From positions 70,286-134,285 of the forward strand of contig CAVWHO010000016.1 of assembly GCA_963754875.1 (NCBI GenBank): a DNA stretch of 64,000 nucleotides, given 5' to 3'. This document shows, one piece after another, positions 15,355-34,299 of the stretch. The translations under genes and the position numbers were made by a program. The DNA comes from Nitrospirota bacterium. Lineage in GTDB: Bacteria > Nitrospirota > UBA9217. How positions within the stretch are numbered: position 1 is the first letter of the stretch; the number at the start of each line of letters is the position of its first letter. Under the pieces are notes generated by a model, which had not been told where the DNA came from, ran no database searches, and saw only the letters and a program-made list of their open reading frames with translations.

Positions 15355-17955
15355 TCATAACGCTCCAACCGTCTGAACGCCCGTTCTGAAAACGAGATGT
15401 CTGTTCTCGCGGTCGATAACCACCCGCGTTCCTTCCTTCACTTCCCCGGAAAGGATCTTCGAGGCAAGCGTATTCAAAATTTCCCGCTGGATCACCCGCT
15501 TGAGCGGCCGTGCGCCGTACATGAGGTCGAAGCCATCTTCGGCCATCAGCTCTTTCGCACCGTCGGTAAGTTCGATCTCTATTTTCTTGTCCGCCAGCCG
15601 CTTCTGGACCTGACCGACCTGGATCGCAACGATCTTTTTCAACACCTCCGCATCGAGTGGATGGAAGATGATCGTGTCATCGACGCGGTTCAGGAATTCA
15701 GGCCGGAAGTGCTGTCGCATCGCCTCCGTCACGCGTCTCCGCATCTCGTCCTCGTCGTTCTGGAGGTCCTGAATATATTGACTCCCGATGTTCGACGTCA
15801 TGATGACCACCGTGTTCTTAAAATCCACTGTCCGTCCCTGGCCGTCGGTAAGCCTGCCGTCGTCAAGGAGCTGGAGCAAAACGTTAAACACTTCGGGATG
15901 CGCTTTCTCGATCTCGTCGAAGAGAATCACGGCATAGGGCCTGCGACGGACCGCTTCGGTAAGCTGTCCCCCTTCTTCATACCCGACGTATCCGGGAGGA
16001 GCTCCGATCAGGCGGGAAACCGTATGTCGCTCCTGGTATTCGGACATGTCGATGCGTATCATGGCCTGCTCGTCGTCGAAAAGAAACTCGGCAAGCGCAC
16101 GCGCGAGTTCGGTTTTGCCCACACCCGTGGGCCCCATGAAGATGAAGCTCCCGATCGGCCGGTTCGGGTCCTGGATCCCTGCGCGGGCACGGCGCACTGC
16201 ATCGGACACGGCAATGATCGCGTCGTCCTGGCCGATGACACGCATGCGCAGGCGGTCCTCCATATGAAGGAGCTTCTGCATCTCGCCCTCGAGCATCTTG
16301 CTCACCGGAATACCGGTCCACTTGGACACGATCTCCGCCACGTCCTCCTCGTCAACTTCCTCTTTCAGGATCTTTGTCTCGGCCTGCACGGCACTCAGTT
16401 TGACCGATTCCGCGTCGAGCTGCTTCTGCAAATCGAGCAGCTTGCCGTAGCGCAGTTCCGCCGCACGGCCGAGATTGCCTTCCCGTTCGGCCTTCTCAGC
16501 TTCGATCTTGGCCTTTTCGATCTGTTCCTTGGTGCCCCGTATTTTCTGGATGCCCTCTTTTTCCGATTGCCACTGCGCCCTGAGGCCGCTTTTCTTTTCA
16601 CCGAGCTCGGCGATTTCCTTCTCTATCTTCGCGAGCCGCTCGCGCGAGGCCGGATCATGCTCTTTTTTTACGGCTTCGCGTTCGATCTCGAGCTGCCGCG
16701 TCCTGCGTTCGACCTCATCAAGTTCGGTCGGCATGCTGTCGATCTCCATACGGAGGCGCGAGGCTGCTTCATCTATCAGATCAATGGCCTTGTCGGGAAG
16801 GAACCGGTCGGCAATATAGCGGTGCGAAAGGATCGCCGCGCTCACCAGCGCCGCATCCTTGATCTTGACGCCATGGTGGATCTCATAGCGCTCCTTGAGA
16901 CCGCGCAGAATGGATATTGAGTCCTCGACTGATGGTTCGCGCACAAGTACCGGCTGGAACCGCCGTGCGAGCGCCGGATCTTTCTCAATGTGCTTGCGGT
17001 ATTCGTTCAAGGTCGTTGCGCCCACGCACCGGAGTTCGCCGCGGGCAAGGGCCGGTTTCAGCATGTTCGATGCGTCCATGGCGCCTTCGGCTGCCCCTGC
17101 TCCCACGACGGTATGGAGCTCGTCAATGAATAAAATCACCTCGCCGCTCGCTTCGGTCACTTCCTTGAGAACCGCCTTGAGCCGGTCCTCAAATTCGCCG
17201 CGGTATTTTGCGCCGGCAATGAGGGCACCCATGTCGAGCGCAATGACGCGTTTGTCCTTGAGCCCCTCAGGCACGTCACCGGAGACGATACGCTGCGCGA
17301 GCCCCTCGGCGATCGCGGTCTTGCCCACGCCCGGCTCGCCGATAAGCACCGGGTTGTTCTTGGTCCTGCGGGAAAGCACCTGGACCACGCGCCGGATCTC
17401 TTCATCCCTGCCGATCACGGGATCGAGCTTGCCACGCCTGGCCAGATCGGTCAGATCCCGCCCATAACGGGCCAGGGCCTGGTACTTGTCTTCGGGATTC
17501 TGGTCCGTAACACGCTGGCTGCCGCGGATATCGACGAGGACCGTAAAGATCGCGTCTTTGGTAACCCCGTGCCTCGCAAGAATGTCCCGGGCCGCGCCGT
17601 CGCCGTCTGCAGCCGCGATCAGGAGATGTTCGGTGCTCACATATTCGTCCTTCAGCCGCTCAGCTTCCTGTTCGGCACGCTCGAACAACTTGCCGAGACG
17701 CGGAGAGAGATAGGTCTGCACCAGCCCTTCGACTTTCGGAAGTCTGTTTAAAACATCCTCAATATCCCCCTTGATCCTCCCCGGGTCTGCACCCAGTTTT
17801 TTGAGCAGGGGAGGAACAACCCCATCCGTCTGCTCAAGCAGCGCGAGCAGGAGATGTTCCGTTTCAATGTGCTGATGATGCCGCTTCGCCGCGCCGTCTT
17901 GCGCTGTTTGCAGTGCCTCTGACGCTTTCAACGTTAATTTATCGAACCGTGCCAT
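15355..17955 (-). CDS. clpB: ClpB AAA+ disaggregase chaperone
   Basis: Two AAA+ modules ([15 protein letters not shown] and [15 protein letters not shown]), a long middle coiled-coil and the Clp N-domain. The start is set at the ATG of MARFDKLT (17955), which is preceded by GGAGG. The ORF track extends it 7 codons further upstream. Confidence 0.93.
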
Positions 17956-18063
17956 GCTAACCTCCGTATGAATCAACGAGAGACGACAAATCCTGATGGA
18001 TATCGTTCGCTGCGCTCACTCGGATGATGGACGAAAACCTTTGCGCCCTTCATCCTTCGTCCC

Positions 18064-18444
18064 TCATCCCTCGTTTCTAATAATCCGGATCCTTCTCACC
18101 GGCACGAGGGCGTTCCGCAGCTCTTCCCTGCGCCTCATCTCGCGGGCAAGTTCCTCGCGGAGCTGCAGAATAGTATCCTCCATTTCCTTCTGCATCTGCT
18201 CCATTTTCTCGCGCATCGAGAGAATAACTTCCACACCGGCGAGGTTCACGCCGAGTTCCCTCGTGAGCCGCAGGATCATCTCGAGCTTTTCTACGTCTTC
18301 CTCGGAATAAAGCCGCGTGTTCCCATCGCTCCGCTTGGGCTTGATGAATCCCTCACGCTCGTAAAGCCTGAGTGTCTGGGGATGGATCCCCAGCATCTCC
18401 GACACGACGCTGATCATGAATAGCCGGTGCTCACGCGATGCCAT
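18064..18444 (-). CDS. hspR: HspR-like MerR-family heat-shock repressor
   Basis: MASREHRLFMISVVSEMLGIHPQTLRLYEREGFIKPKRSDGNTRLYSEEDVEKLEMILRLTRELGVNLAGVEVIL is a MerR HTH highly similar to HspR, with a C-terminal charged coiled-coil. It sits between dnaJ and clpB. The start is the ATG at 18444, preceded by AAAGGA. Confidence 0.75.
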   Translation of the reverse strand: MASREHRLFMISVVSEMLGIHPQTLRLYEREGFIKPKRSDGNTRLYSEEDVEKLEMILRLTRELGVNLAGVEVILSMREKMEQMQKEMEDTILQLREELAREMRRREELRNALVPVRRIRIIRNEG

Positions 18445-18519
18445 AATTTGTTCCTTTTGTACCAAGACAACCATGTTGCCGTTTTTTTATTTACGCCGAC
18501 GCGGTCGGCTCGCTCCACA

Positions 18520-19650
18520 TTACCTTTTCCTGAACCCCCTGAAGGTAATAGCGCTCCTCGGGTTGGAAGGGTGTAATCGGTCAAGCTCCCGAAGGAGTTC
18601 CTTGCCTCGATCAGAAAGTCCTATCGGCGTAACGACTTTAATCGTCACGTAGTGGTCACCTACGCCTACGCCGCCGAAATGGGGCACGCCTTTGCCTTTC
18701 AGTTTCATCTGTTGGCCCGTCTGCACCCCCTCCGGAAGGGTCAGAGATACGATTCCGTCAACCGTCGGGATCTCGATTTTCTCTCCCAGCGCAGCTTCCT
18801 TGACGGTAACGCTTGATTCCGAATACAGATTATCGCCTTTCCGTTCGAAATAGGGGTGCGACCTCACCTTGGTTACAATATATACATCACCCGGAGGTCC
18901 GCCTTTTTCGCCGGGACCGCCTAAGCCTGCCATACGTACTTTGGAACCGTTGTCAACACCCGGAGGGATCTTCACACTGATCCGGTCCGCCTTGGACGTA
19001 ACTCCCCGGCCCGCGCAGTTCTTGCAAGGATTCTGATTGATTGTTCCTTCGCCGCGGCAGGTGGGACAGGGCTGCGCGATTTGCATGAATCCTCTGCCCT
19101 GCGAGATGCTCCCTGTGCCCATACACGTCGGGCAGGTACGGGGCGTGGTCCCCGGCTGCGCACCTGAGCCGTTGCAGACCGTACACGTTACTTCACGCTG
19201 AAGGTCAACCTGCATGGTTTTACCGAGGATTGCATCCTCCAGGTCGACCTCGACGGCATAGGTAATGTCCTCACCTTTTACCGGTCCCCGCTGTCTTGCG
19301 CGCTCACTGAATATATTGCCGAATATGTCCTCAAAGCCGCGAACGCCGGAAAAACCAGCGTTGCGCCCAAACCCTTCAAACCCCTGCCCAGGACCGGCAC
19401 CTTGTCCAAAACTCTGATCAAATGCAGCATGGCCGAACTGATCGTACTGCTTTTTCTTTTTTGCGTCCGAGAGTACCTCATAAGCTTCATTGATTTCCTT
19501 AAACTTCCCCTCGGAAACTTTATCTCCAGGGTTGACATCTGGATGGTATTTTCTCGCGAGTTTTCTGAATGCCTTCTTTATTTCAGATTCAGTAGCGCCT
19601 TTTTTTATGCCGAGGAGCTCGTAATAATCTTTTTTTGTCGTTGGTCCCAT
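18520..19650 (-). CDS. dnaJ: DnaJ (Hsp40) co-chaperone
   Basis: J-domain ([33 protein letters not shown]), G/F-rich region, and four CxxCxGxG zinc-finger repeats ([32 protein letters not shown]). Confidence 0.92.
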
Positions 19651-19687
19651 AATGTATGCATACCTCTAATAATGTTATTATGTTAGT

Positions 19688-19716
19688 ATTATAAAATATG
19701 AGTGCATCATTGTCAA
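19688..19716 (-). promoter_or_regulatory. Consensus sigma-70 promoter for dnaJ-hspR-clpB: TTGACA, 17-nt spacer, TATAAT
   Basis: The minus strand reads gctatacTTGACAatgatgcactcatatttTATAATactaac... about 30 nt upstream of the dnaJ ATG. Confidence 0.6.
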
Positions 19717-19844
19717 GTATAGCAAAAAAAATTATGGTAGCGTATAACCACCATAAAGCAATACTTTCAAAAAAATGAGTACTATTACCCACTTTTATAT
19801 ACTTTTTAGCATTTTTTACATCAAACTAACTATTTCTTGACTGT

Positions 19845-20531
19845 TTATAGGTTATTTTTCAAATTGTCATAAGCTTTTTTTGCAACTTCCCTTACTTCCA
19901 AATCCTCAAATCCATCATTTCTATATACCCAAACCACGGCTCCATCCTGCTTCAGATTCTCAACCTGGCAGATTATTTTTTTAAAATCCTGAGGGCTAAA
20001 CCGTTCTTTTAACAGAGGTACAATTTCAAGAGCATAAATTCTGGCAAGCGGATCTTCCTCAGCAAGTCCGCGCAAAACCACGCTCTTGAACGGCACGATC
20101 GACTCGGGACGGGCCTCGGAGATCTTTTTCAGTGCATAGAGAACTCCGGGTCTGAAGACGCGTTCGTCAATTGCGAATATTTCGGCAATTAAGGGGATAA
20201 CATCCGACATTTTTACCGGATCAGCGCTGACAATTTCTCCCAGAATCTCAGGAGCTGACCATCCAATACCGCCGGATTCATCTGACAGGGACCATAACAG
20301 CTTCCGGATGGCATCTCGGAGGAAATCATAGTTGTTCTTTACGAACAGCGACGAAACGTGACCGATTGCCTTGATTGCCCGCCAGCCGACGAGCGTGGTC
20401 TTGTCATAGGAAAGCCGGACCAGAACGCTAAACACCTTCCTGCTCTGCAAGGCCAACGTTGTGACGGTTTCGTAATCATTTGCTTCCAGAGCATGCACAA
20501 GCGTCTGCTTCATTTCCAGCTGGGTTAACAT
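19845..20531 (-). CDS. HEAT/PBS-lyase-like repeat protein
   Basis: 228 aa with repeated helical units (e.g. VRLSYDKTTLVGWRAIKAIG, PVKMSDVIPLIAEIFAID, VRGLAEEDPLARIYALEIVPLL). The function is unknown. Confidence 0.5.
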   Translation of the reverse strand: MLTQLEMKQTLVHALEANDYETVTTLALQSRKVFSVLVRLSYDKTTLVGWRAIKAIGHVSSLFVKNNYDFLRDAIRKLLWSLSDESGGIGWSAPEILGEIVSADPVKMSDVIPLIAEIFAIDERVFRPGVLYALKKISEARPESIVPFKSVVLRGLAEEDPLARIYALEIVPLLKERFSPQDFKKIICQVENLKQDGAVVWVYRNDGFEDLEVREVAKKAYDNLKNNL

Positions 20532-20545
20532 CGTTCACCTGCAAT

Positions 20546-21052
20546 CTACACACGGACCTCTTTGAAGGTAATCAACTCCGACAGTGTCATGGCCAGCCAT
20601 GCCATGACCTGGACCGCGATGGGCAGGACCAGGCTGGAGAAAACTGCCATGGCGGCCCGGTTCTTCGAGGTCTTCTGTTCCTGCAGAACAGGCCCCTTGG
20701 CCGTTGTCAAGGCATAATTCAGCAGGATGGCGAGGGGCAGATAGGCAAGGACCCGAAAATAGAATTTCGTCTGGAGAATGACTAAAATCGCAACGAGGAG
20801 GACCACCTCAATGAAGGTGATAAGAGCTGTTCTTTTCATTGAAAGCTGCCATATTTTTTTAGAAAGGAAATATTTAACAACCAGCGTCAGGCCTACGCCG
20901 ATCACAAACATTGTCGAGACGAATACGAATGTGCAGAAACATCCCACTTCCACGGCGCTTGCGGACGACGGATATGCCAAGAGTCCCGCAATAAGGACTG
21001 CAGTGCAAAAAAAGGAATTTAACCCCGCCTTGAGCCTCCCCTGAACATCCAT
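20546..21052 (-). CDS. Hypothetical integral membrane protein (about 4 TM helices)
   Basis: 168 aa, strongly hydrophobic segments, no recognisable motif. Confidence 0.45.
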   Translation of the reverse strand: MDVQGRLKAGLNSFFCTAVLIAGLLAYPSSASAVEVGCFCTFVFVSTMFVIGVGLTLVVKYFLSKKIWQLSMKRTALITFIEVVLLVAILVILQTKFYFRVLAYLPLAILLNYALTTAKGPVLQEQKTSKNRAAMAVFSSLVLPIAVQVMAWLAMTLSELITFKEVRV

Positions 21053-21933: not shown

Positions 21934-24900
21934 ATGAACCATTATCGATTCGATGTCGCTATTATCGGGGCCGGACCTGCCGGAGTAGCTGCTGCAGGAT
22001 CGCTCGCCGGCTCCGGTATAACCGTGGCTCTGGTTGAAGCTGGTGTGTACGCCGGGGCCGAAAACTGGTCCGGCTGCGTTTACTTCACGGAAAACCTCGC
22101 TGAAAAGGATTGTTTCGGCGCCGAAGCAATAGAGGCGGCCCCTTTTGAACGGCGTATTGCGCGCCGGGGCACTCTTATGCACAACGGGATCGACGTCATC
22201 GGCATCGAACTTACGAGTCTGGAGGCATTCAAGAACTGCTATACCGTTCTCCGCCCTGTCTTCGATCCCTATTTTGCTCATCTTGCCCGGGAGAAGGGCG
22301 CGGTCCACATCACCGGCACGACGGTGACCTCACTCATCAGGAAAGAAGGAAGGGTCGTCGGCGTCATGACGGATCGCGGTCCGCTTTATGCCGGCGTCGT
22401 TTTCCTGGCAGAGGGCGATGCTTCTCACCTTGTCCGGTCGGAGCAACTCGAGAACACCGCGCAGCCGCACTTTCTTCAGGGAGTGAAAGCCGTACTTTCG
22501 CTCGCGTCGGAGGAGATCGAAAAACGGTTCAAACTCGATCCGGGCAAAGGCGCGGCCTACGAACTGCTCCTTCGGAACCCTTCCCTCTCCGGCAGGACCG
22601 CAAAACTGAACGTCGGCGGTTTCCTGTACACAAACCGGGACAGCCTTTCGATGGGCTACGTTGTCCCCCTCGACAATCTGCGGGACTATTACCGTGGCAG
22701 CCACGACATGCTCTTTGAATGGATGCGAGGCCTTCCGTATCTCCGGGAACTGACCGAGGGCGCGGCGCTATCGGCTTACGGCACGAAGATCATCAGAAGC
22801 GGTGGATGGCGCGAACGGCCCGTGCTCGTTCAAAACGGCCTTGCAGTCGGTGGAGCATCAACGGGCCTCGGCGTGGACATTCCCTTCCCGAACTTCACCG
22901 GCCCTGCATCCGCAACAGGACTCTATTTCGCGCGGGCAGTCAAAAATATTTTCAAACGAGGGGGCGCCTTTGATGCCAAAACACTGAGCCGGGAATATCT
23001 TGAGCCGCTCCTCGAAAGCGTACATGGGGAAAACTCCCGCTATCTTTCCGCGTGGCCGGGCTATTTCGGGAAATCGAACGTCCTCTTCAGCAGGACCGTG
23101 GACATGGCCTGCGGCAGCGTTCACTTCTTGTCAAAGAAAGATATTGTCGAAACAGGGCGGTTTCTCAGAAACCATGTCCTTTCCGTTCGGGGGATCAAGG
23201 AATCAATCGTTGACACGATGCATGCAATCAGCGCGCTCAGGCTCTGGAGGCCCCTGGCAAAAACAGTGATCAATCCCCTGACGATCGGTCGCTGGTTCGC
23301 CAATCTTTTTAAAAGAGCGCCCGCCCCGGACCGGAAACTCGGCTTCATCATACAGATTGCCGGAAAAGAAAGGAACGCTGCGTCGCTGCCCTGGCCTACG
23401 GGCTCGCTTGTCAGACGGCTCTCTCCTGCACTTGTCCTTGCGCTCGAACAGATCTATGCAAATGACAACCGGCCTGCAGAGAAAAAGTTTTCTCACGCTG
23501 TCCGGAGTCTTCTGCAGGGACTCAAGCTGACTGATTTCATAATCCTTCCCGCCTTTGGCTTCGTTCTCGTTTTCTTTGCGCTCGGAACTGCGCTCTGGGA
23601 TGCCTTTCGTTTCTATTTGCTCAAGACGCCTGTGGACAAGCTCCTTGCGGAACCGGTCATGGCGTACAATGAATCCCTAAGGAAAGCGCGTGATCTCGAC
23701 GCAGTGAAACCCCGGCAGAGCCTGGAGGCGAAACTGGCGACGAACACCTACCATGTCGGGGACGCGTCGCACATCAGGACGCTCTGGCCCGAGGCTATCC
23801 CCGCCCATCCGGACATGTCTCAGGCAGCGCTCTGGTGGCTATGCCCTGCGCGGGTCTACGTGTACGACGCTCCACTCGCAGGCCGCGGCAAGGTCACGGT
23901 AAACTTCGAGAACTGTATCAAGTGCGAATCCTGCTGGAGGGCGGAACCTCAACGCGTGCTCTGGGGGCGCCACACAGATCACAAGCTTATTTACCGGCCC
24001 GACAGCGCAGCGATACCGGTTCTCCTGCATGCTCTTCGGGAAAATCTCCCTTCAAGAAAAGGGACGCATCCGGCGATTGCCCCCCTGGACGAAAAGCTCT
24101 GGTACCTGAACGAAGACGTGCTGCAGCTTGGACAGGAGGCGTTCAATGCATCATCGGCTTTCATTGATGCCGTTGCAAAGCTGCCCGCTTCGTCCGACCG
24201 AGGCAGAAATGCCTGGCCGCTTTCGCTCGGGAAAAGACTGTCCGAAAAACTCTTGAAGCTCGAAGCCGCTTTCACGAACGACGGCAGATACGCGCAGGCT
24301 GAAATTATTCAGGTCGAAAGGAAAGACATCGAGCTCAAGCTTACGGAAGGAAGACTTCTCCATGCGCTCTATTGCTGCCGCAGGTTTGAGCAGGGCATTC
24401 TGTCGTGGGTGCGTGAGGATGATGGTTATACGATTCCCGCATCAACAGTGAAAAAATATGACCGCACCCTCTCTTACGAAGAAGTCTCCCGCATCTTCCC
24501 TGACCGGATCGTAAAACAGTGGGAGGAAGAATTCATGCCCGATGCATGGGCAGAAACACTGCGGCAATTCATCCTCGAGCAGCGCGATAAACCGCTTGAG
24601 GCAATACGGGCGCTCTCCTCAGTGAACCCGGCCCTCGGACTGATTGCAGCGCACCAGCTTCTTGCCAATGAACTGCTCACGAAATCGAGTATCGAGCCTG
24701 GCCCGGGCATCTGCGCCGCAGCCGCCGACCATCTCGATATCGAAGAGGAGGGCAGCGGCAGCGTCCGCATAAAAGGCCCCCTGTCACTCGTCCCTATTGC
24801 GGCGAGCCGCACCCTGCTGCTCACGTCCGGTGGGAAAGGATACATTATCCCCCTTGCCGACGCGGGTGTTACGATCTCACACACGCCGACGATCGGGTTC

Positions 24901-27900
24901 AGGGCTGCGGGATTTGCCGATGTTTCGCTTGACGTGACCGTAACAACGTACGCTGTGCTATCGGCCGAAAGAACAGACATCCCTGAAGCTGCTTCCTACC
25001 TCGCCATCGCACTTGGAGCCGGCGACTACCTCTGCAAGAGGATAAAAGAACACGCTGCAGGAAGAGTTCAATTCCCGGGCCAGATGCTCGACACCGAGGG
25101 CAGGGATGGTATTGCGAAGCTCGGCGCAGTCAAGGCCATGATCGCCAGAACTGAAGCGTGGCGGCTCCTGCTTGAGAACCTTTACGACGTTTATGCCAAA
25201 CCGGAAAGCCGAAATCCGCAAACCGAAATGAATTTCTCCCTCATCTGCACTTCGCTCGCTGCCATGTCTTTCAGCCCGGAGCCGGGCGCCATGGGATACG
25301 ATGCGGGCCAGGTCTTCGGCGGATTCGCGTACTCCGAAGACGACCTGCTCTCGCGGTTCTACCGGGACAGCGCTCTCTTCCGGTTCCTGGCGCCGGGATA
25401 CGGCGCATCGACTAAGCTGCATGCCGCTCTCGTCTCCCTCAGTGATGACATCGTGTTTTCCGGCTTTGGCGACCTCGGAAAAATTCAAAATGCACCGCTC
25501 AGGGACTTCGTGCACGGCCTTTCGGACGTTGAGAACAAATGCCGTACCCTGCCCGAAAAAGCAGATCCGGGTCTCACGGGTGAAGCGCAAGCCGTCATCA
25601 TCGGCATTCGCAGGCTTCTCATCAGCATTGAAAACGGACTGAACCAGGGCAGGAGCACGGAACGAGAAGCTGCTGCCGCAGAAGTGCTCCTTGGTCTGGC
25701 GGAAGACGCGCTTCAGAAGGCCCGTCTCTCAACAGGACGCGGCCGCGTATCGCCCTTTGCTCTGTTCCCGGTGGAGCCCGGAGGTACGCCCGCCACGCTC
25801 GACAGGGACTATGAATCCTTCTGCAGAGCGCCCGGCGCTCCGCATATATCGGGTAGCTTCCTCCTGTCTGCATTCGACCGGGCATTGCGTTTTGTCCCTG
25901 AAGTGCAGCTCCATGACGCCCGCCTCCGAAACCGCTGGACCGAACTCACTGATTGGTTCAAACAGAACTGCCGCGACAAGAAATTCGAGGGACTTTTTAT
26001 CGAACGGTATATCGAGAAAATCCACGGCCTTCCTGACGAGGTCATCGATGCCGTCAAGAACAATAAGTGGCTCGCCACGTACGTTCCGAAATCCGAGGAC
26101 GGGCTCGGATGGCGCAAGGCTGAATATTACATCCTGAATTCCGCGGCAGGGAGCTTCGGTGACGCAGGCATCGATCTCCTCATCATGGCAAGCACGAGCA
26201 TCGGCACAACACCCATTCTCCTGGGACTCGAGGACGAGCTGCCGCGCGTGCGCCAGGAACTGGCGCCCCTGGCACAGGATGCAGGCATTCTGGGCGAGAT
26301 CAACACAAAGCTTTCCAGGATCATCGGGATGTTCTCGAACCCCAACCCGTCCCTGATCAGGAAAGAATACGAAGCGCTGATAAAACTCGTGGACGTCCGG
26401 GTCCGCCGCACCCGAGTGGTCAAGTATCTGGCCGCAAATTTCCTGCGCGCTTTTTACAGCGCAGGCATTGCAGGCAGGCGCGGCGATTTCAGCGGGTTCA
26501 CTGCAAACCTCAAACACGCAGGCGGCCTTTTCGAAAACATCATGCCCGATGTCCGTGCCGCCCTGGAAGAACTTCCTCGGCGCGAGCGATGCCATAAACT
26601 TTTCCTCCGTTATCTTGGCCACGGCGGCGTGAGCGCCTTTGCTCTTACTGAACCGACCGCGGGCTCGGACTCCGGCGGTGTCAAGACCACGGCGAAGTTA
26701 GAGACGATAAAACTCCTTCCCCGTGATGACGGAAGGTATGCTTTCCAGCTTGACGGGCAGAACGACAAAAGCGAGCGCTATTTGATCGACGCAGACAAGA
26801 TTGCCTTTACCGATCGGGGTATCTCATATCAGACGCCGGACGGGCAGTCTGCGTTAATTCAATATGACCGCTATGATTATGCAACTGACCAGGGGACGAG
26901 ATACTACCTGTACCAGGGGAACGTCTGCGAGTTCCATGACATCGGCCAGGTGCGAAAGACCAATGCCGGGCTTACGTATGAGTATTACAGCCTGACCGGT
27001 GCGAAGATGTGGATCACGAACGGAAGCATCGCGACCCAATTTTCCCTTTTTGCCCAGACAAACGAAGGCGTCACAGGTTTCATGGTGGACCGGCACAGCG
27101 AAGGACTCAAGGTCGGGGCGGACGAAGAAAAAATGGGGCAGCGAGGCTCGCCTACGAACGAAATCTCGATCGACGCTGTGCGCGTTCCGCGCGAGGCCGT
27201 GATCGGCTACGAAGGCCACGGCCAGGTGAATGCCCTCGAAACGCTGAACGTCGGGCGCTGCGGTCTTTCCGTCGTGTCCGGCGCGCTCAGTCGCAAGCTG
27301 TTGGAAGAAGCACGCCGAAATATTCCCTCAACGCCGGAGCGGGACCGATTGCTCGGCGAAGCTGCAGCGATCATGTTCGGCAGCGAGTCCCTTGCCTACT
27401 ACCTCGTAGGCCTATTCGACCGGCCTCACGAGTCGGTCCGCATGGAGTCAGCAATTGCAAAATATGTCTGCTCCGACGATATCCATGAACTCATCTCGCT
27501 CGTCGAGTATGCCTACGGCCCCTCCGGCCAGACGGAAAAGTTCCTGCTCGAAAAAGCGCGGCGCGATGCGCGCATCCTGACCATCTACGAAGGAACGAAT
27601 GAAGTGCAGCGATTTTTGATCCTGAAGGACCTGATCGCCATGGCCCCAGCCTGGTCCGAGATACCCGTGCCGCAGGATGATCCCGCATCACGAACGCTTG
27701 CAGAATGGAAGAACAAGCTGAGAAACCAGGTGAAGGAAGCGGCCCGCTTGCTCGGCGATGCGTCGTGGTCCGACGCGATGCTCCAGCCCGCACTTTTCCC
27801 AATTGCCGATACGGCGGGTGAGGTCCTGCGGCTTGACTGCATATACTACCGCATGGAGTGGCTCGAACAGCAAAGAGCGGTCCTCGAACAGGGAGATCGG

Positions 27901-29853
27901 GACTACGTGCTCGATCTCCTTGATGCCGGCAATCGCGCTGCAGAAAGGTCCCTCGCGCGGCTTGCTTATCTCGACAAAAAGTACTCCTCTGCCCTGGCGC
28001 TCCTCCGGGAAAACAACACTATGCCCGAGGTACGCGCTGCGGATGCCGCCCTTGATGCTTTTGCGGAACACGAAAGGGTGGCTGGCCCTTCTCCCGGCAG
28101 CGTGCGGGCCCAACTGAACTGCCTCGTCATTGTCCGGCCCGTTGCCGAACTTTCTCCGCGCCCGAGGATCGCGGACAACGCGCTTCAGGAGATCCTGTGG
28201 CAACTTGATCCATGCGATCTTTCCGGTCTGGTCCAAATGCGGGAACTCAAACAAGCAAGCGATTCCAGCCTGACCATCGACGTGCTCATGCCCGGCGGCC
28301 CCGAGTTTGATCATCTTTTGAGAACAGCGGCAGGCGCCCGCGCAGACAACCTCCTTCGCCTTGCTGTCGATCCTGCGGCAGGTCCGGGATCTTACGTGAA
28401 GGCCGTGAAAGACCTCGAAGTGCTGAGACCATACGATCTCATCGTGATTGGTGCAGACTGCCTCGATGGCGACCGGAGTCTCGGCGCCTATTTGGCAGGA
28501 TGTTTCAAGAAGAACCTTTACCGCAGAGACCGAATCGAAGCCAAACCGGACGGGACCGGCTTGACCCGTGTCGTACTGCCGGCAGTGATCAGCATGACCT
28601 CGCCAGTGAAGGACAAGGGCTGCGACATGAAATCGGCCGTAGCCGCCGCCTTTTCGATTATACGGGTAATCGGGCCTTCGATGAATGAGCCATCGACCGA
28701 GCCCGGTCGTTACGAACGAGTATCCGGGAAAGAAACCATTGCGCAGACTGTGACGGACACGGCTTCGGCAGCGGTCTATCTCAAGGAGTTTGCAGCTTCA
28801 GCGAGTGCTGCAGCTGCCGGAGAGTATGCCGGTCCGGTAAAGAAGGGAACGTTTGCGCAGGACAGTGCGGTCTGGGCTTTGCTCGGACCTCATGAGCAGA
28901 AATCCAACATCGCGGTGCTCCGTGCTGCACGGCTTGCTGCCGACCTTACTGGCAGGAAGGCGCGTGCCGTCATCCCCGCACCGAGAGGAATGTGGCCAGC
29001 TCTCCTCGGGCTTGCAAAAGCCCAGGGGTGTGAGCAGGCATTCTGTGTGGACACGCAGGACAATAGGTTGTCGAGTGAGGGAAAGCGAAAAATCGTCCGC
29101 GTTGTCCAAAAGACAGCGGACGAGACATTTCTCTGTGCAGGGCCGGAATGGACAGGCGCATTCGCCTACGCCGGCGGCGAGTCCGACAACCCCAAGTCGC
29201 CTGTCCTTCTCTGCTCCGGAGTTACGGGAATTGAAAAAGGAGGGACCGGCTCTCTCGCCTTTGCGCTTCAGTCCTATGAAGGTAAACTCGTCCGGCGTTT
29301 AGTGCAGAAACGCGGTTCTTCTTTCATCACCACTGTCCCTGAAGCAGATTTCCCTGTTGCTCCGGAAGCGTTGACGTTCGACGCCGCAGTCCTCGACTTT
29401 GCAATTGACCCCGAATTACTCATGCCTTTGCCGCCCGTAGCAGCCCCAACGCTCTCGCAGGCGGACGTTATCATCGATCTCGGTTACGGTATCAAGGATA
29501 AGGCGGGGCGTGAACTGGCGGAAAAACTCAGGACAAAACTCGAGGCACTGGGACTCGCACCGATGTTCGGCGCAACGCGCAAGGTGACGCAGGACTTGAA
29601 GCTCCTGCCGCTGGACGCCCAGATCGGCCAGACGGGCATCCGCGTCAACCCGAAGCTCATCATTGCGCTCGGCATCTCGGGCGCGCCGCAGCATATCGAC
29701 TACGTCGGCACACGCGCGGAGATTCTCTGCTTCAATAAAGACCCCGAGGCTCCGCTCATGAAGCTGAACCAGACGAGGCCTTCACCGCGCGTTCATCCCA
29801 TCGTGGGTGATCTTTTCGTGACGGTGCGGGAGATCATCGCCAGGCTTTCGTAA
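21934..29853 (+). CDS. Giant 2,639-aa multidomain flavoprotein. Order: FixC-like ETF:quinone oxidoreductase (aa 1-480), hydrophobic helix (533-560), FixX-like ferredoxin (630-700), degenerate ACAD-like domain (720-1165), acyl-CoA dehydrogenase with an insertion (1440-1905), EtfB (2060-2310), EtfA (2320-2639)
   Basis: A single uninterrupted ORF with AAGGAG 5 nt before the ATG. The N-terminus DVAIIGAGPAGVAAAGSLAGSGITVALVEAG...AGAENWSGCVYF parallels FixC. CPARVYVYD...NFENCIKCESCWRA parallels FixX (CPAGLY...GCLECGTCR). LTEPTAGSD (26644) and ARRDARILTIYEGTNEVQRF (27589) are ACAD signatures. PKLIIALGISGAPQHIDYVGTRAEILCFNKDPEAPL...IVGDLF is the EtfA FAD-binding signature. DLIVIGADCLDGDRSLGAYLAGCF is EtfB-like. 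Confidence 0.85.
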   Translation: MNHYRFDVAIIGAGPAGVAAAGSLAGSGITVALVEAGVYAGAENWSGCVYFTENLAEKDCFGAEAIEAAPFERRIARRGTLMHNGIDVIGIELTSLEAFKNCYTVLRPVFDPYFAHLAREKGAVHITGTTVTSLIRKEGRVVGVMTDRGPLYAGVVFLAEGDASHLVRSEQLENTAQPHFLQGVKAVLSLASEEIEKRFKLDPGKGAAYELLLRNPSLSGRTAKLNVGGFLYTNRDSLSMGYVVPLDNLRDYYRGSHDMLFEWMRGLPYLRELTEGAALSAYGTKIIRSGGWRERPVLVQNGLAVGGASTGLGVDIPFPNFTGPASATGLYFARAVKNIFKRGGAFDAKTLSREYLEPLLESVHGENSRYLSAWPGYFGKSNVLFSRTVDMACGSVHFLSKKDIVETGRFLRNHVLSVRGIKESIVDTMHAISALRLWRPLAKTVINPLTIGRWFANLFKRAPAPDRKLGFIIQIAGKERNAASLPWPTGSLVRRLSPALVLALEQIYANDNRPAEKKFSHAVRSLLQGLKLTDFIILPAFGFVLVFFALGTALWDAFRFYLLKTPVDKLLAEPVMAYNESLRKARDLDAVKPRQSLEAKLATNTYHVGDASHIRTLWPEAIPAHPDMSQAALWWLCPARVYVYDAPLAGRGKVTVNFENCIKCESCWRAEPQRVLWGRHTDHKLIYRPDSAAIPVLLHALRENLPSRKGTHPAIAPLDEKLWYLNEDVLQLGQEAFNASSAFIDAVAKLPASSDRGRNAWPLSLGKRLSEKLLKLEAAFTNDGRYAQAEIIQVERKDIELKLTEGRLLHALYCCRRFEQGILSWVREDDGYTIPASTVKKYDRTLSYEEVSRIFPDRIVKQWEEEFMPDAWAETLRQFILEQRDKPLEAIRALSSVNPALGLIAAHQLLANELLTKSSIEPGPGICAAAADHLDIEEEGSGSVRIKGPLSLVPIAASRTLLLTSGGKGYIIPLADAGVTISHTPTIGFRAAGFADVSLDVTVTTYAVLSAERTDIPEAASYLAIALGAGDYLCKRIKEHAAGRVQFPGQMLDTEGRDGIAKLGAVKAMIARTEAWRLLLENLYDVYAKPESRNPQTEMNFSLICTSLAAMSFSPEPGAMGYDAGQVFGGFAYSEDDLLSRFYRDSALFRFLAPGYGASTKLHAALVSLSDDIVFSGFGDLGKIQNAPLRDFVHGLSDVENKCRTLPEKADPGLTGEAQAVIIGIRRLLISIENGLNQGRSTEREAAAAEVLLGLAEDALQKARLSTGRGRVSPFALFPVEPGGTPATLDRDYESFCRAPGAPHISGSFLLSAFDRALRFVPEVQLHDARLRNRWTELTDWFKQNCRDKKFEGLFIERYIEKIHGLPDEVIDAVKNNKWLATYVPKSEDGLGWRKAEYYILNSAAGSFGDAGIDLLIMASTSIGTTPILLGLEDELPRVRQELAPLAQDAGILGEINTKLSRIIGMFSNPNPSLIRKEYEALIKLVDVRVRRTRVVKYLAANFLRAFYSAGIAGRRGDFSGFTANLKHAGGLFENIMPDVRAALEELPRRERCHKLFLRYLGHGGVSAFALTEPTAGSDSGGVKTTAKLETIKLLPRDDGRYAFQLDGQNDKSERYLIDADKIAFTDRGISYQTPDGQSALIQYDRYDYATDQGTRYYLYQGNVCEFHDIGQVRKTNAGLTYEYYSLTGAKMWITNGSIATQFSLFAQTNEGVTGFMVDRHSEGLKVGADEEKMGQRGSPTNEISIDAVRVPREAVIGYEGHGQVNALETLNVGRCGLSVVSGALSRKLLEEARRNIPSTPERDRLLGEAAAIMFGSESLAYYLVGLFDRPHESVRMESAIAKYVCSDDIHELISLVEYAYGPSGQTEKFLLEKARRDARILTIYEGTNEVQRFLILKDLIAMAPAWSEIPVPQDDPASRTLAEWKNKLRNQVKEAARLLGDASWSDAMLQPALFPIADTAGEVLRLDCIYYRMEWLEQQRAVLEQGDRDYVLDLLDAGNRAAERSLARLAYLDKKYSSALALLRENNTMPEVRAADAALDAFAEHERVAGPSPGSVRAQLNCLVIVRPVAELSPRPRIADNALQEILWQLDPCDLSGLVQMRELKQASDSSLTIDVLMPGGPEFDHLLRTAAGARADNLLRLAVDPAAGPGSYVKAVKDLEVLRPYDLIVIGADCLDGDRSLGAYLAGCFKKNLYRRDRIEAKPDGTGLTRVVLPAVISMTSPVKDKGCDMKSAVAAAFSIIRVIGPSMNEPSTEPGRYERVSGKETIAQTVTDTASAAVYLKEFAASASAAAAGEYAGPVKKGTFAQDSAVWALLGPHEQKSNIAVLRAARLAADLTGRKARAVIPAPRGMWPALLGLAKAQGCEQAFCVDTQDNRLSSEGKRKIVRVVQKTADETFLCAGPEWTGAFAYAGGESDNPKSPVLLCSGVTGIEKGGTGSLAFALQSYEGKLVRRLVQKRGSSFITTVPEADFPVAPEALTFDAAVLDFAIDPELLMPLPPVAAPTLSQADVIIDLGYGIKDKAGRELAEKLRTKLEALGLAPMFGATRKVTQDLKLLPLDAQIGQTGIRVNPKLIIALGISGAPQHIDYVGTRAEILCFNKDPEAPLMKLNQTRPSPRVHPIVGDLFVTVREIIARLS

Positions 29854-30225: not shown

Positions 30226-30876
30226 CTACTGCCCCCCGCGCACAGGCCATACATAGAAATATCTGGTCTTATTGAGGTATTTCATGTTGCCCCAGACCAT
30301 GTCGACGGCCCATGCCATGGCTGCATCGTTGGTATACGAGGTAGACGACCAATAGAAGTCGCTGGCCCGTACATTGGTGAATCCCTGGCTATTCAGCCAT
30401 TCGGCGGTATTGGTCTGAGCGTTGTTAACAAGGCTTCCTATCTCCTTGAAGTTCGGCAAGCGCCAGTCATTATGTCCCAGGTATTTTTCAGCATTCAGTT
30501 TTGCCACATAATCAAGGGCATGCTGCCATGTAACCGCTCCGACGAATGTCTGGCTTTCTTTCCAATTAGGATCTCTTGTCTGCATAAGATTGCCGTTGGG
30601 CGCCCAGACAAGCCCCGTTAGATTGTCGGTAACCGTGGTATCAGCGTTTGCGGTAAACCGCTGAGTCGGCCAGGCAGCGCCTTTTTGCAGTTCTCCATCC
30701 TGCCCTGTATTCGTACAGGATATGACGTTGCCTGAGCTGTCATAACAAGTCGTCTGGCCGGTCTTGGGAAGTCTGATTGCGGTATCCTTACTTCCACCAT
30801 TGCCTACACTGACAATACCCGTCACTATAATAACCGGCAATAATGCCGCAAACCAAAAGCCCTGTCGTACTTTCAT
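30226..30876 (-). CDS. Secreted DUF1566 (Lcl C-terminal domain) protein
   Basis: 216 aa with a signal or TM start. HNDWRLPNFKEIGSLV and YWSSTSY...AWAVDM match the DUF1566/Lcl C-terminal domain signature. Confidence 0.65.
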   Translation of the reverse strand: MKVRQGFWFAALLPVIIVTGIVSVGNGGSKDTAIRLPKTGQTTCYDSSGNVISCTNTGQDGELQKGAAWPTQRFTANADTTVTDNLTGLVWAPNGNLMQTRDPNWKESQTFVGAVTWQHALDYVAKLNAEKYLGHNDWRLPNFKEIGSLVNNAQTNTAEWLNSQGFTNVRASDFYWSSTSYTNDAAMAWAVDMVWGNMKYLNKTRYFYVWPVRGGQ

Positions 30877-31077
30877 GTCATAACCTCCCTATATTGAAAT
30901 TAATCGATACGCTGTTAATGTCTACGACCATTTCATCGTATTTCCGTCTTGAAAAGCCAGCCCTGCGTCAACGTTATCAAAGCGGGCAGATACAGTATCG
31001 TCATTAAAGCGCTTAACAGCATCATGCTGACGATGAAAGCGCCCACCGTAATATAGGTGTAGACCTGGCACAGTTCG

Positions 31078-31461
31078 TCATGGACGCACATGATCGACAC
31101 ATTTTTTACTATTTTGGTCATAGTGTTTCTCCTTATACATGCCAAGTTCTTTTCTCCCTGTAACCGGAGCATCACCAAAAAGCTGTTCCAGGCCATCCTG
31201 CATCAGGCTGCATGCCTGACAAATTTTCTTGTTGGCGATTCCATAATAAACATTCGTGCCTTCTCTTCTTGTCGTGACGATGCGCTCCATGCGCATGAGG
31301 GCCAGGTGCTGCAACGAATTCGCCTTTGAAACTCCGAGTTTTTCGGTGATCTCGCCGGCAGTCAGTTCGCCTTCTCTAAGCAGGCAGAGTATCTCAAGCC
31401 TCGTGGGATTGGGAAATATCTTGCAAAAATCAGCGTGCAGCTTCAATATCTCTTTCTTCAT
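31078..31461 (-). CDS. ArsR/SmtB-family transcriptional regulator
   Basis: The C-terminal 127 aa of the 313-aa ORF (MKKEILKLHADFCKIFPNPTRLEILCLLREGELTAGEITEKLGVSKANSLQHLALMRMERIVTTRREGTNVYYGI...) is a complete ArsR HTH. There are Cys in DFC, EILCLL, CQAC and KKC. The start is set at the internal ATG at 31461. Confidence 0.7.
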   Translation of the reverse strand: MKKEILKLHADFCKIFPNPTRLEILCLLREGELTAGEITEKLGVSKANSLQHLALMRMERIVTTRREGTNVYYGIANKKICQACSLMQDGLEQLFGDAPVTGRKELGMYKEKHYDQNSKKCVDHVRP

Positions 31462-32019
31462 GGCAGATTGCTGAACCCCCTCTTCATCTTCCAGAGGAAG
31501 TATTTCTCGAACCGGACCTTCATCCACTTCGCCCAGATGGTCTTCTTCGAATAGGAACTCTGGCGCGGCGGAAGCACGGGATAGGCCTTCATGTATGCGG
31601 CTGTGTTTCCCATGTCCATGAGACAAACCACGCCGATTTCCGACGGAGGAGGCGGGGTCTTCCCGGTGATGCCGGCAGCGATAGTTGCCGCGGCAATCTT
31701 CGCCATCTTCACCGTCATAAATCCGGTCTTGGGAACGCCCCGTCGGCACCGGCGTCGCCTCCGGCGGTGCGATGGCCATGGTAACGCCGATGGCAAAAAT
31801 ATTTTTAAATTTCGTGTGACGATAGTTCTTGTCAACCGGGATGAACCCGCGGGGATTTCCCAACGGCATGACGGCAGGCACGCCTTTGAACGGCGGCGCG
31901 ATCATGGCGAGTTTGAAGGGTAGCTTTGTGCCGTCCTTGAGTTTGATTTCTCCGGGCGTCTTACGCCCGATTGCAGGGCCGGCGGGAGATCTTTTCCCAC
32001 GTATCCCCGTCCACCTCAT
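31462..32019 (-). pseudogene. Truncated remnant of a sulfide:quinone oxidoreductase-like flavoprotein (C-terminal about 80 aa only), read through in-frame into arsR
   Basis: EIKLKDGTKLPFKLAMIAPPFKGVPAVMPLGNPRGFIPVDKNYRHTKFKNIFAIGVTMAIAPPEATPVPTG matches the C-terminal FAD-domain end of SQR/NDH-2-type enzymes. The about 300 upstream residues are missing, with aspS immediately upstream. The stretch between this fragment and arsR is low-complexity. Confidence 0.4.
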
Positions 32020-32247
32020 TAATATACTCTTTGATCGAAAAAACTTTGCCGCACGACGTGCAGCGGAAGGTGATTGTTTTTCAGCCGATGCGGAGTTCGA
32101 CTTCTTTGCCGCAGATCTTACACTTCATAAAAACCTCGACAAAGAACAGGTGTCAGCAGCCAGAATCCAGTAGTCAGGAGAACACGCCGACAATAATCGC
32201 AACCAAGCTTCTGGATTCCAACTTCTGGCTCCTGCATACTGCGGCTC

Positions 32248-34020
32248 TTATTCCACCACATCCAGCTTGATCGACAGTTCTTTGAGCTGGGCCTGAGTCA
32301 CGCGTGACGGCGCCTCGGTCATGACGCAGACGGCCTTTTGTGTTTTGGGGAAGGCAATCACGTCTCGGATCGACTGCGCGCCCGTAAGGATCGCCGTGAT
32401 CCGATCGAGACCGAAGGCCAAGCCGCCGTGGGGCGGTGCGCCGTATTCGAGCGCTTCGAGCAGGAACCCGAACTTTTTCCTTGCATCTTCTTCTGCAATG
32501 TTCAGCAGGCCGAACATCTGTGACTGGACCTCCGACCGGTGGATACGGATGCTGCCGCCGCCGATCTCCGAGCCGTTCAACACGATATCATAGGCCTTGG
32601 CCCGTACCTTGAGCGGATCGGTTTTCATGAATTCGAAGTCTTCGTCCTTCGGCGCGGTAAAAGGATGGTGCATGGCGTCGTACCGCTTTTCATCGGCGTT
32701 CCATTCCACGAGCGGGAAGTCGGTGACCCAGAGGAAGTCCAGTTTGCTTTCGTCAATGAGGCCCAAGCGCTTAGCCACGAGCAGCCGCAGATAGCCCAGC
32801 GTCTCGGCAACAATCTTGGGGCTGTCGGCGATGAACATCATGAGGTCGCCGGGCTTTGCAGCAAGCCGCTCGGCCATGGATTTGACCTGGCCGTCTTTGA
32901 AAAATTTGGCGATCGGCGACTCAAACCCCGATGCGGTCACTTTGATCCAGGCAAGTCCTTTTGCTCCGAATACCTTTGCCTCATTCGTGAGGTCGTCCAC
33001 TTCCTTGCGCGAAAGACCGGCCATGCCGGGAGCGGCAAACCCCTTTACCTTGCCGCCGAGTTCCACGGCCTGAAGAAAGACCTTGAAGGCGGAAGCCTTG
33101 GCAATGTCGGAGATGTCCTTGAGTTCCAGCCCGAAACGCGTGTCCGGCTTGTCTGAGCCGTAGCGGTCCATGGCCACGTGATAGGGAAGACGTGGGAACG
33201 GCACGGCGATCTCGATGCCTTTCACCTGCCGGACAACTTCAGCAACGAGCTTTTCCATGAGCGCAATGACATCGTCTTCGTCGATGAACGACATCTCAAG
33301 ATCGATCTGCGTAAACTCGGGCTGCCGGTCCGCGCGAAGGTCCTCATCGCGGAAGCACTTGACGATCTGGTAATAACGTTCGAAGCCGGCCACCATCAGG
33401 ATCTGCTTGAAGAGCTGGGGCGACTGCGGAAGCGCGAAGAACATGCCGGGATTCACCCTGCTCGGAACAAGATAGTCCCGGGCGCCTTCGGGCGTGCTCT
33501 TCGTGAGGAAGGGTGTTTCGATGTCTACGAAGCCGTTGCTGTCGAGGAAGCGCCTCACGGTCTGGGTGATCTGATGGCGCGTGATCAGGACCTTTTGCAG
33601 GCTCGGCCGCCGCAAGTCAAGATAGCGGTACTTGAGCCTCAGCATCTCTGCGACATCTGTTTCGTCTTCGATCATGAAAGGAGGTGTCTTTGCCTGATTC
33701 AGGACCGTCAAATCGGTCACGAGCACTTCGATCTCGCCGGTCGGGAGCTTGGAGTTCACGGTATTGCCCGGCCGGGGCGCAACAGCGCCCGTGACAGCGA
33801 TCACGTATTCGCTCCTGATATCATGGGCCAAAGCATGGGCATTCGATGCCGTTTCGGGGTTGAAGACCACTTGCGTGATGCCGCCCCGGTCCCTAAGGTC
33901 CACGAAGATGAGTCCGCCGTGGTCTCGTCTCGTGTGCACCCATCCCATGAGCGTCACGACAGCAGCCACGTCTTTTTTTGTCAGTTCACCGCAGGTATGC
34001 GTTTTTTTTTGTGCTTTCAC
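32248..34020 (-). CDS. aspS: Aspartyl-tRNA synthetase
   Basis: Class II aaRS motifs and an anticodon-binding OB fold ([12 protein letters not shown]...[27 protein letters not shown]). The C-terminal GGGSIRIH...[22 protein letters not shown] is typical of AspRS. The start is set at the GTG (VKAQKK) at 34020, which is preceded by GAGGGG. The ORF continues upstream without a stop to 34236. Confidence 0.88.
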
Positions 34021-34299
34021 GGGCCTGATTCCCCTCTTTCGTCGTTTCAAAAACAGGCTGGATAATAGCATCTCATACAGCACAAAGTCAAGCGCCCAAT
34101 GCAGGGGAACAGCGCCACGCGCCCCTGAAATCGCTGTCTGTCTTGAACGGGTTATGCTATAGTAAAAGACATGTCCGCCCGGATTGTCGCACTCGTGCTT
34201 GCATTCTTGCTCCACGGTTCTGCGGGGCAGTCCCATTCCCAGCCAAAGTCCCTTATACTGAAGCTCGACTATATAGCGGAAAAGACGGACTTAAAATAG

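Follow-up and report, generated by a model that had tools for sequence, protein, structure and literature searches.

What does an acyl-CoA dehydrogenase (ACAD) domain do when its catalytic base is missing and a second ACAD domain, with the base in place, follows in the same chain? The question is raised by a stretch of 64,000 nt of contig CAVWHO010000016.1 from a Nitrospirota bacterium (positions 70,286 to 134,285, here called the window), in which an open reading frame (ORF) at 21934-29853 on the + strand encodes a protein of 2,639 aa. Nucleotides 24091-25428 are in frame with it and encode aa 720-1165, a part that an earlier note had described as a catalytically dead ACAD-like domain, possibly an intramolecular partner of the ACAD domain further along. 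We denote the first, dead ACAD domain of this ORF D1 and the second, live one D2. Our analysis favours, with a probability of about three in four, D1 as an ACAD-fold pseudoenzyme that is the obligate non-catalytic partner of D2 in an ACAD-type dimer of two different domains.

In ordinary ACADs the flavin adenine dinucleotide (FAD) is held by two subunits. The subunit to which the FAD belongs binds the isoalloxazine with a TEPxxGSD loop and a WIT motif and supplies the catalytic Glu, and the neighbouring subunit binds the ADP part with an Arg, a Gln and a Gly. The sites in D1 that bear on this division are given below by their positions in the window. Column counts here and throughout refer to a 74-sequence homologue alignment, which reaches down to ~25-28% identity in the D1 region.

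24076-25428, + strand: D1, aa ~715-1165, from AlphaFold2 (AF2), Foldseek against the PDB and a profile against PDB sequences
24706-24741, + strand: GICAAAADHLDI, aa 925-936, at the site of the canonical FALTEPxxGSD flavin loop; a short turn that lacks both S/T-E-P and G-S-D
25063-25074, + strand: R1044-V-Q-F1047, the ACAD R-x-x-F-G motif, whose Arg corresponds to R297 of human short-chain ACAD (SCAD); R, Q and F in 74/74
25075-25134, + strand: PGQMLDTEGRDGIAKLGAVK, aa 1048-1067, a family-specific insertion relative to 4m9a, right after R-V-Q-F
25306-25323, + strand: G1125-Q-V-F-G-G1130, with Q1126 and G1130 corresponding to SCAD Q365 and G369; 74/74, from the alignment to rat SCAD Q341/G345
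25387-25404, + strand: L1152-A-P-G-Y-G1157 in place of Y-E-G-T-x-E; catalytic-Glu column A29/gap14/S10/P9/T5/E3/L2/V1

The first domain has an ACAD fold

Searches with the single D1 sequence gave only Pfam Acyl-CoA_dh_1 at E 0.016, which is below cut-off, and a PDB match at E 0.17. As these are too weak to decide, the fold was judged by a family profile and by structure prediction. Searched against all PDB sequences at E<=10, the D1 family profile gave 18 matches, all of them ACADs, with 4m9a as the best (E 9.1e-5). The alignment to 4m9a (residues 191-366) begins late in the beta domain and runs through all of the C-terminal helical domain, and HMMER aligned the profile segment GQVFGGFAYSEDDLLSRFYRDS with rat SCAD (1jqi 320-362).

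The AF2 model of aa 700-1180 has a mean predicted local distance difference test score (pLDDT) of 81.8 and runs in the order helices, strands, helices. It should be noted that the AF2 input was a 28-row alignment drawn instead of the 74-row set. Run against the PDB with the D1 model, Foldseek returned 257 matches at E<=1e-3, with a best E of 1.6e-9 and template modelling scores up to 0.69. Its 50 best matches are without exception chains of the ACAD superfamily, and the ~380-410 aligned columns take in practically the full length of the target chain. The models confirm a complete three-part ACAD fold (helical, beta, helical) for D1, aa ~715-1165. The earlier note had allowed that this region might not be an ACAD fold at all, but this fails, as the profile retrieves ACADs alone and AF2 and Foldseek agree with it.

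The first domain lacks the catalytic base and its own flavin site

In human SCAD the base is E392, and FAD is contacted by F152, L154, S155, T187, G160, S161, T364 and E396 of the same monomer and by R297, Q365 and G369 of the adjacent monomer (PMC13027082). Positions in D1 were mapped by this numbering (PMC13027082) and by the HMMER alignment to rat SCAD 1jqi, where Q341 and G345 are the human Q365 and G369. The D1 counterpart of the ACAD C-terminal motif is aa 1126-1157, QVFGGFAYSEDDLLSRFYRDSALFRFLAPGYG. Within it A1153 takes the catalytic-Glu position, 27 residues after Q1126 just as E392 follows Q365 in SCAD, and YEGT corresponds to LAPG.

These alignments, to rat SCAD as well as to 4m9a, bear out what the earlier note had read from the letters alone, namely that the end of aa 720-1165 parallels the ACAD C-terminal motif and that the Glu of YEGT is replaced in LAPGYG. 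Whether the substitution is conserved, which the note had raised, has a divided answer: Glu is absent in most homologues (present in 3 of 74), but the residue that replaces it varies.

An alternative catalytic base in D1 was considered as well, and is ruled out on conservation. The residue at aa 1018, by the isovaleryl-CoA dehydrogenase (IVD) sequence the IVD/long-chain ACAD (LCAD)-type base position, is not conserved (D38/E9/L6 and others). A scan of aa 840-1165 for acidic columns (D+E in >=90% of sequences) returned E864, E1039, D1053, D1058, E1135-D1137 and D1145. Among these, E1135-D1137 and D1145 lie within ACAD-typical motifs and D1053 and D1058 within the family-specific insertion; there is no conserved acidic column at a known base position.

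The equipment with which an ACAD subunit binds its own flavin is missing too, as judged from sequence and predicted secondary structure. At the flavin-loop site (aa 925-936) the columns are variable, and D1 has 4 residues between the strands at model residues 87-91 and 96-100, against a 13-residue loop between 728-733 and 747-754 in D2. The threonine of WIT is Pro954 in D1, and Pro in 71/74 homologues. Conservation in D1 is confined to one side: all columns with >=97% identity fall within aa 988-1152, the C-terminal, dimer-facing half, and the N-terminal helical domain and first strands have no conserved column. The claim that the first ACAD-like domain is catalytically dead hence holds, with a variable Glu column, no conserved alternative base, no flavin loop and Pro for the WIT Thr; D1 appears to be an ACAD fold that is not catalytically competent.

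Residues for a partner's flavin are kept in the first domain

The residues that an ACAD gives to the FAD of its neighbour are found in D1 without exception. R1044, Q1046, F1047, G1125, Q1126, F1128, G1129 and G1130 are invariant in 74/74 homologues, and R1044-V-Q-F1047 is aligned with eRVQFg of 4m9a and with ...YAENR273 of rat SCAD.

The insertion that follows, aa 1048-1067, is nearly invariant as well, with D1053, G1056, K1062 and G1064-K1067 at least 97% identical, and its pLDDT is below 50 in both AF2 models. An invariant loop together with low model confidence suggests that this segment may contact a ligand or another module, for instance the FAD adenosine or the electron transfer flavoprotein (ETF) part of the chain.

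The second domain is live and lacks the partner-contact residues

In D2 the pattern is reversed, as seen from the following sites.

25936-27648, + strand: D2, aa ~1335-1905, from Pfam N, M and C domains, profile against PDB and Foldseek
26638-26670, + strand: F1569-ALTEPTAGSD-1579, the own-FAD loop of D2; all positions 72-74/74
27004-27021, + strand: K1691-MWITN-1696, the own-FAD threonine motif of D2; 74/74
27313-27351, + strand: RRNIPSTPERDRL, aa 1794-1806, a degenerate, shortened counterpart of R-x-x-F-G in which the partner-FAD Arg is lost
27502-27531, + strand: VEYAYGPSGQ, aa 1857-1866, a degenerate counterpart of Q-x-x-G-G-x-G by the column counts
27586-27597, + strand: Y1885-E1886-G-T1888, the catalytic base motif of D2; Y, E and G in 74/74

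The profile search of the PDB with D2 gave very-long-chain ACAD (VLCAD) at 9e-39, followed by CarC, ACAD9 and Bcd. In Pfam the N-domain is matched at 1360-1430, the M and C domains exceed the gathering cut-off, and the three together span aa 1360-1905. The top 12 Foldseek matches of the AF2 model of aa 840-2030 are VLCAD, ACAD9, 2z1q (T. thermophilus) and 3owa (B. anthracis) with ~750-800 aligned columns, and D2 with its C-terminal helices takes ~775 alignment columns against long ACADs of 550-590 residues. In the model D2 therefore has what characterises a VLCAD-type long ACAD, a core with a C-terminal helical domain of ~120-180 residues. Relative to VLCAD it carries two insertions, both conserved in the family: aa ~1432-1558 (26227-26607), ~117 residues, helical and in the N-terminal domain, and aa ~1588-1681 (26695-26976), ~90 residues, beta-rich and in the middle domain (TTAKLETIKLLPRDDGRY...YEYYSLTG).

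By its motifs D2 is catalytically equipped, as the TEPxxGSD loop, the WIT motif and the YEGT Glu are all kept. The loop at aa 1569-1579 we take to correspond to F152/L154/S155/G160/S161 of SCAD, in agreement with the published numbering. The motif TIYEGTNEVQ, which the earlier note had found in its second ACAD domain, is indeed present (aa 1883-1892); the start of that domain has to be moved, however, from aa 1440 to near aa 1335-1360.

What D2 has lost is the other half of the FAD-binding residues. HMMER alignments of D2 to VLCAD and CarC show a deletion of ~10 residues in the R-x-x-F-G stretch with a Ser opposite the Arg, and the Arg column (1800) reads S42/T16/R8. At the Gln position (aa 1859) the residues are R36/Q13/Y9 and others, and at the second Gly (aa 1863) P58/L12, never Gly. 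VLCAD, ACAD9 and the B. anthracis long ACAD (7s7g, 8phf, 3owa) are dimeric, and D2 with its extension resembles them. They form homodimers, however, in which FAD and active site are each present twice and each protomer gives R-x-x-F-G and Q-x-x-G-G to the FAD of the other, and D2, lacking both motifs, does not appear to be suited to such a homodimer.

A proposed dimer of two different domains

Taken together, the motifs show a complementary loss: D1 keeps only the partner-FAD residues, and D2 only the own-FAD residues and the Glu. A D2:D2 dimer leaves its FADs without partner contacts and a D1:D1 dimer has the contacts but no flavin, therefore only D1:D2 is complete. Further, an AF2 model of aa 840-2030, which holds D1, the linker, D2 and the extension (1,191 residues), has a mean pLDDT of 86.2 and a predicted template modelling score (pTM) of 0.86. 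D1 makes up 28% of these residues, and as such a pTM would be out of reach with D1 placed arbitrarily, the model points to one fixed arrangement of D1 and D2. This reading follows from the definition of pTM, which gives no interface geometry.

We propose that D2 would bind the acyl-CoA and the isoalloxazine of FAD, with Glu1886 as base, and that D1 would clamp the ADP part of the same FAD through R1044, Q1126 and G1130 and offer a dimer-like interface. The D1:D2 pair would accordingly have a single FAD and a single active site, which lie in D2 and are completed by D1. The built-in pseudo-homodimer of the earlier note can thus be kept as a pseudo-dimer, which the complementary loss and the pTM of 0.86 support, but not as a homodimer; D1 and D2 are too diverged for an hhalign match, and the pairing is hence a pseudo-heterodimer.

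Several points weigh against this proposal. The comparison of D1 and D2 profiles by hhalign was not significant, either with 26/19 or with 74/74 sequences. It follows that D1 did not arise from D2 by a recent duplication; the result is not evidence against the ACAD fold, as Foldseek shows that fold. The pseudo-dimer does not account for the invariant insertion aa 1048-1067. Glu occurs at the IVD-type position in the protein of the window (E1018) and at position 1153 in the homologue L001, which makes the activity of individual D1 members a formal possibility. Finally, the fold, the motifs lost and kept and their conservation are direct results, and from them we infer, rather than measure, the dimer geometry, that is the canonical ACAD-dimer orientation of D1 on D2 with R1044, Q1126 and G1130 facing the D2 FAD, along with how many FAD are bound and which way the electrons flow.

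The same residues could be brought together between chains, with D1 of one polypeptide completing D2 of another in a domain-swapped homodimer that mimics an alpha2beta2 tetramer, as in the homodimer of CasC, a fused two-domain ACAD. The linker of ~170 residues is long enough for this, and the complementarity of the motifs is silent on whether pairing is within or between chains. CasC and FadE34 act as homodimers, although the review on their fused domains (PMC8399759) does not give the oligomeric state. We nevertheless hold inter-chain pairing to be unlikely, as the single-chain AF2 model already attains its pTM with D1 confidently placed, and as the VLCAD-type C-terminal extension of D2 belongs to dimeric and not to tetrameric ACADs.

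If D1 were instead a mere scaffold, or a platform on which for example the ETF flavin domain or the FixC/FixX-like part docks, with no role in the FAD binding of D2, its place between the FixX and ACAD modules would be natural, and so would the insertion aa 1048-1067, which is unique to the family and modelled with low confidence as expected of a partner-dependent loop. Such a role would not explain why D2 has lost exactly the three partner-FAD residues that never vary in D1, and the FAD of D2 would have no partner contacts, so this reading seems very improbable to us. Least credible is a second active acyl-CoA dehydrogenase with a non-canonical base and its own FAD, to which we attach next to no weight. 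D1 does have a complete ACAD fold, and E1018 in the protein of the window and the Glu at 1153 in L001 could be thought of as bases, but neither acidic position is conserved, the TEPxxGSD loop is absent, the WIT Thr is Pro, the N-terminal helical domain and first strands are without a conserved column, and D2 lacks the residues that would complete a FAD bound to D1.

Modules of the host protein

Along the 2,639-aa ORF the modules follow in the order FixC-like, hydrophobic segment, FixX-like, D1, linker, D2, C-terminal helical extension, ETF-beta-like and ETF-alpha. Those outside D1 and D2 are as follows.

21934-23013, + strand: FixC-like FAD oxidoreductase, aa 1-360 (NCBIfam FixC 9e-38; PDB 7koe_C FixC 5.8e-30)
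23521-23607, + strand: hydrophobic segment, aa 530-558 (19-residue Kyte-Doolittle mean 2.4)
23833-23952, + strand: 4Fe-4S motif of FixX/ETF-quinone oxidoreductase (ETF-QO) type, Cys 637, 661, 664 and 667 (Pfam Fer4_ETF_QO E 5.7e-4, under gathering score)
25429-25935, + strand: helical linker between D1 and D2, aa 1166-1334 (AF2 secondary structure, model residues ~330-495)
27649-28023, + strand: C-terminal helical extension of D2, aa 1906-2030 (Foldseek; helices at model residues 1078-1187)
28024-29850, + strand: ETF module, in the order beta-like part, alpha N-domain and, at aa 2507-2588, alpha FAD domain (ETF_alpha 2.6e-17; PDB 1efp_A 3e-13)

The segment aa 530-558 is the sole strongly hydrophobic stretch in the ORF and sits between the FixC-like and FixX-like parts; it could be a membrane anchor. 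The gene calls of two homologues, P0135 and P0183, begin just ahead of it. A Pfam search of the linker between D1 and D2 found no family. The ETF N-terminal domains (PF01012) were not detected by Pfam in aa 2031-2506 (28024-29451) of the protein in the window, but in homologues both of the corresponding places match PF01012, as the alpha N-domain in P0024 and as the beta-like domain in P0097 and P0122. For the ETF-alpha FAD domain the best scores are those of the non-bifurcating Paracoccus and human ETFs, above the bifurcating ETFs.

The FixABCX-like content is thus clear for FixC and for the ETF-alpha FAD domain, while for FixX the 4 Cys are present with the Pfam score below cut-off, and the ETF N-domains are seen in homologues only. 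The set of modules resembles EtfABCX/FixABCX (Thermotoga maritima, 7koe) and the mitochondrial ACAD-ETF-ETF:QO chain, that is, an electron path from acyl-CoA to quinone. These known systems are all multi-subunit, whereas here the path is in one polypeptide. Electrons from D2 would pass to the tethered ETF module, further to the FixCX-like module and to quinone. It should be noted that the steps assigned above to D2 and D1 rest on the evidence gathered here, and that the electron path is read from domain content alone.

A single ACAD unit placed between the FixC/FixX-like quinone-reductase and ETF modules would give a 1:1:1 stoichiometry from acyl-CoA to the membrane quinone pool. Further, we speculate that the independently evolved, one-flavin D1:D2 pair might be the hub of a membrane-anchored single-chain acyl-CoA:quinone oxidoreductase, in which the dead half enables the 1:1:1 wire and aa 1048-1067 is a docking or gating site for the ETF flavin domain. 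We put this forward tentatively, at somewhat less than even odds.

Relation to known ACAD pairs

ACADs in which only one of two folds is catalytic have been described from steroid degradation. The alpha2beta2 ACADs that act in the catabolism of cholesterol and bile acids (ChsE4-ChsE5, ChsE1-ChsE2, Scd1AB and IpdE1-IpdE2) have the Glu and the substrate site in one subunit and one FAD per heterodimer; this FAD lies at the interface, with the isoalloxazine bound by the alpha subunit and the ADP-ribose by the beta subunit (PMC8399759; PMC11153573). In CasC of Rhodococcus jostii RHA1 two ACAD domains are fused, the Glu is only in the C-terminal one, and the N-terminal one is required for FAD binding (PMC8399759).

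As in the alpha2beta2 enzymes, the present protein has two ACAD-fold modules with the catalytic Glu in one alone, and the residue pattern of D1 would fit a binder of the ADP part; the alpha2beta2 ACADs are encoded by separate genes and form tetramers, whereas here there is one fused chain. CasC and FadE34/ChsE3 (M. tuberculosis) share with it two ACAD folds per chain, the same domain order and, as it seems, the same division of labour. They are, however, stand-alone steroid side-chain enzymes of Actinobacteria with ~700 aa, while here the pair is embedded in a chain of 2,639 aa, D2 resembles VLCAD and has both large insertions and a C-terminal extension, and D1 is extremely divergent.

The 18 PDB matches of the D1 profile at E<=10 are ordinary homomeric ACADs, with no ChsE4/5 chain and no sequence kinship to the steroid ACADs among them. 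As beta subunits of the alpha2beta2 enzymes are not among these matches, an independent origin is likely. Hence D1 probably works like the family of half-dead pairs without being a member of it by descent. The principle of the half-dead ACAD pair was already known, and the present pair is a new, very divergent variant that probably evolved independently.

Distribution and genomic neighbourhood

A genome scan found 28 related loci, nearly all in metagenome-assembled genomes (MAGs) of uncultured Nitrospirota, and in 17 of them the ORF is complete, at ~2,630-2,720 aa, and the architecture unchanged. A protein search with the full-length query returned over 100 full-length clusters, with identities of 33-84% and all with this architecture; they come mostly from uncultured Nitrospirota, and their named sources are Nitrospirota/Nitrospiria, Acidobacteriota, Leptospirillia and a 'Betaproteobacteria' MAG.

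When D1 was searched exhaustively by phmmer against 1.84 billion cluster representatives, 110 matches were obtained at E<=1e-3. The long ones are proteins of ~1,000-2,900 aa, some truncated, with the D1-like stretch ~430-1,290 residues from the start, and the short ones are fragments, such as the 430-aa P0145, annotated as 'partial' on a 4-kb contig. No stand-alone D1 and no unfused system was found among these representatives, and D1 therefore appears to occur only together with D2, which speaks for the proposed pairing. A D1-only homologue search gave 14 matches (P0001-P0014, related to 24001-25500), which are short metagenome gene calls whose alignments turn into unrelated sequence midway, a pattern that frameshift errors in long-read assemblies typically produce. 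Due to such fragmented calls a domain-only homology search badly under-reports the family, with 14 matches against more than 100 full-length clusters.

In literature searches, whose coverage was incomplete, a FixC-FixX-ACAD'-ACAD-ETF fusion in a single chain was not described, so this fusion has apparently gone undescribed so far. Public annotation of the genes is generic, with labels such as 'acyl-CoA dehydrogenase family protein' and 'ETF-quinone oxidoreductase', which obscure both the fusion architecture and the dead domain.

Within the giant gene the opposite strand holds several ORFs of 168-297 aa, at 24474-24980, 24958-25590, 25729-26622 and 27688-28314 (all - strand). Since a conserved coding region of 2,639 aa encloses them completely, these ORFs are most likely no genes of their own but shadow ORFs that arise from the G+C-rich sequence.

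The neighbours of the giant gene, at 15355-21052 and 30226-34236 (both - strand), encode ClpB, a MerR-family regulator, DnaJ, an Lcl_C-domain protein, an ArsR-type helix-turn-helix protein and aspartyl-tRNA synthetase, and aspS is syntenic downstream of the giant gene in 9 related loci. No beta-oxidation genes were found near the giant gene or as conserved neighbours across the 28 loci. With no beta-oxidation genes nearby, the giant gene appears to stand alone, and its neighbours, which are of housekeeping or stress type, give no clue to the substrate.

Implications

Half-dead ACAD pairs have been regarded as a peculiarity of steroid degraders, and are now seen in uncultured Nitrospirota, Acidobacteriota and relatives. 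The complementary loss in D1 and D2 is an unusually clean signature of obligate pairing at the sequence level, by which other pseudo-dimeric flavoenzymes could be sought. The architecture of the host is more unusual than the half-dead pair itself. ETF shuttling is hard to capture with transient multi-subunit complexes, and the host protein would, given successful expression, lend itself well to single-particle work on a mobile ETF flavin domain that shuttles between donor and acceptor.

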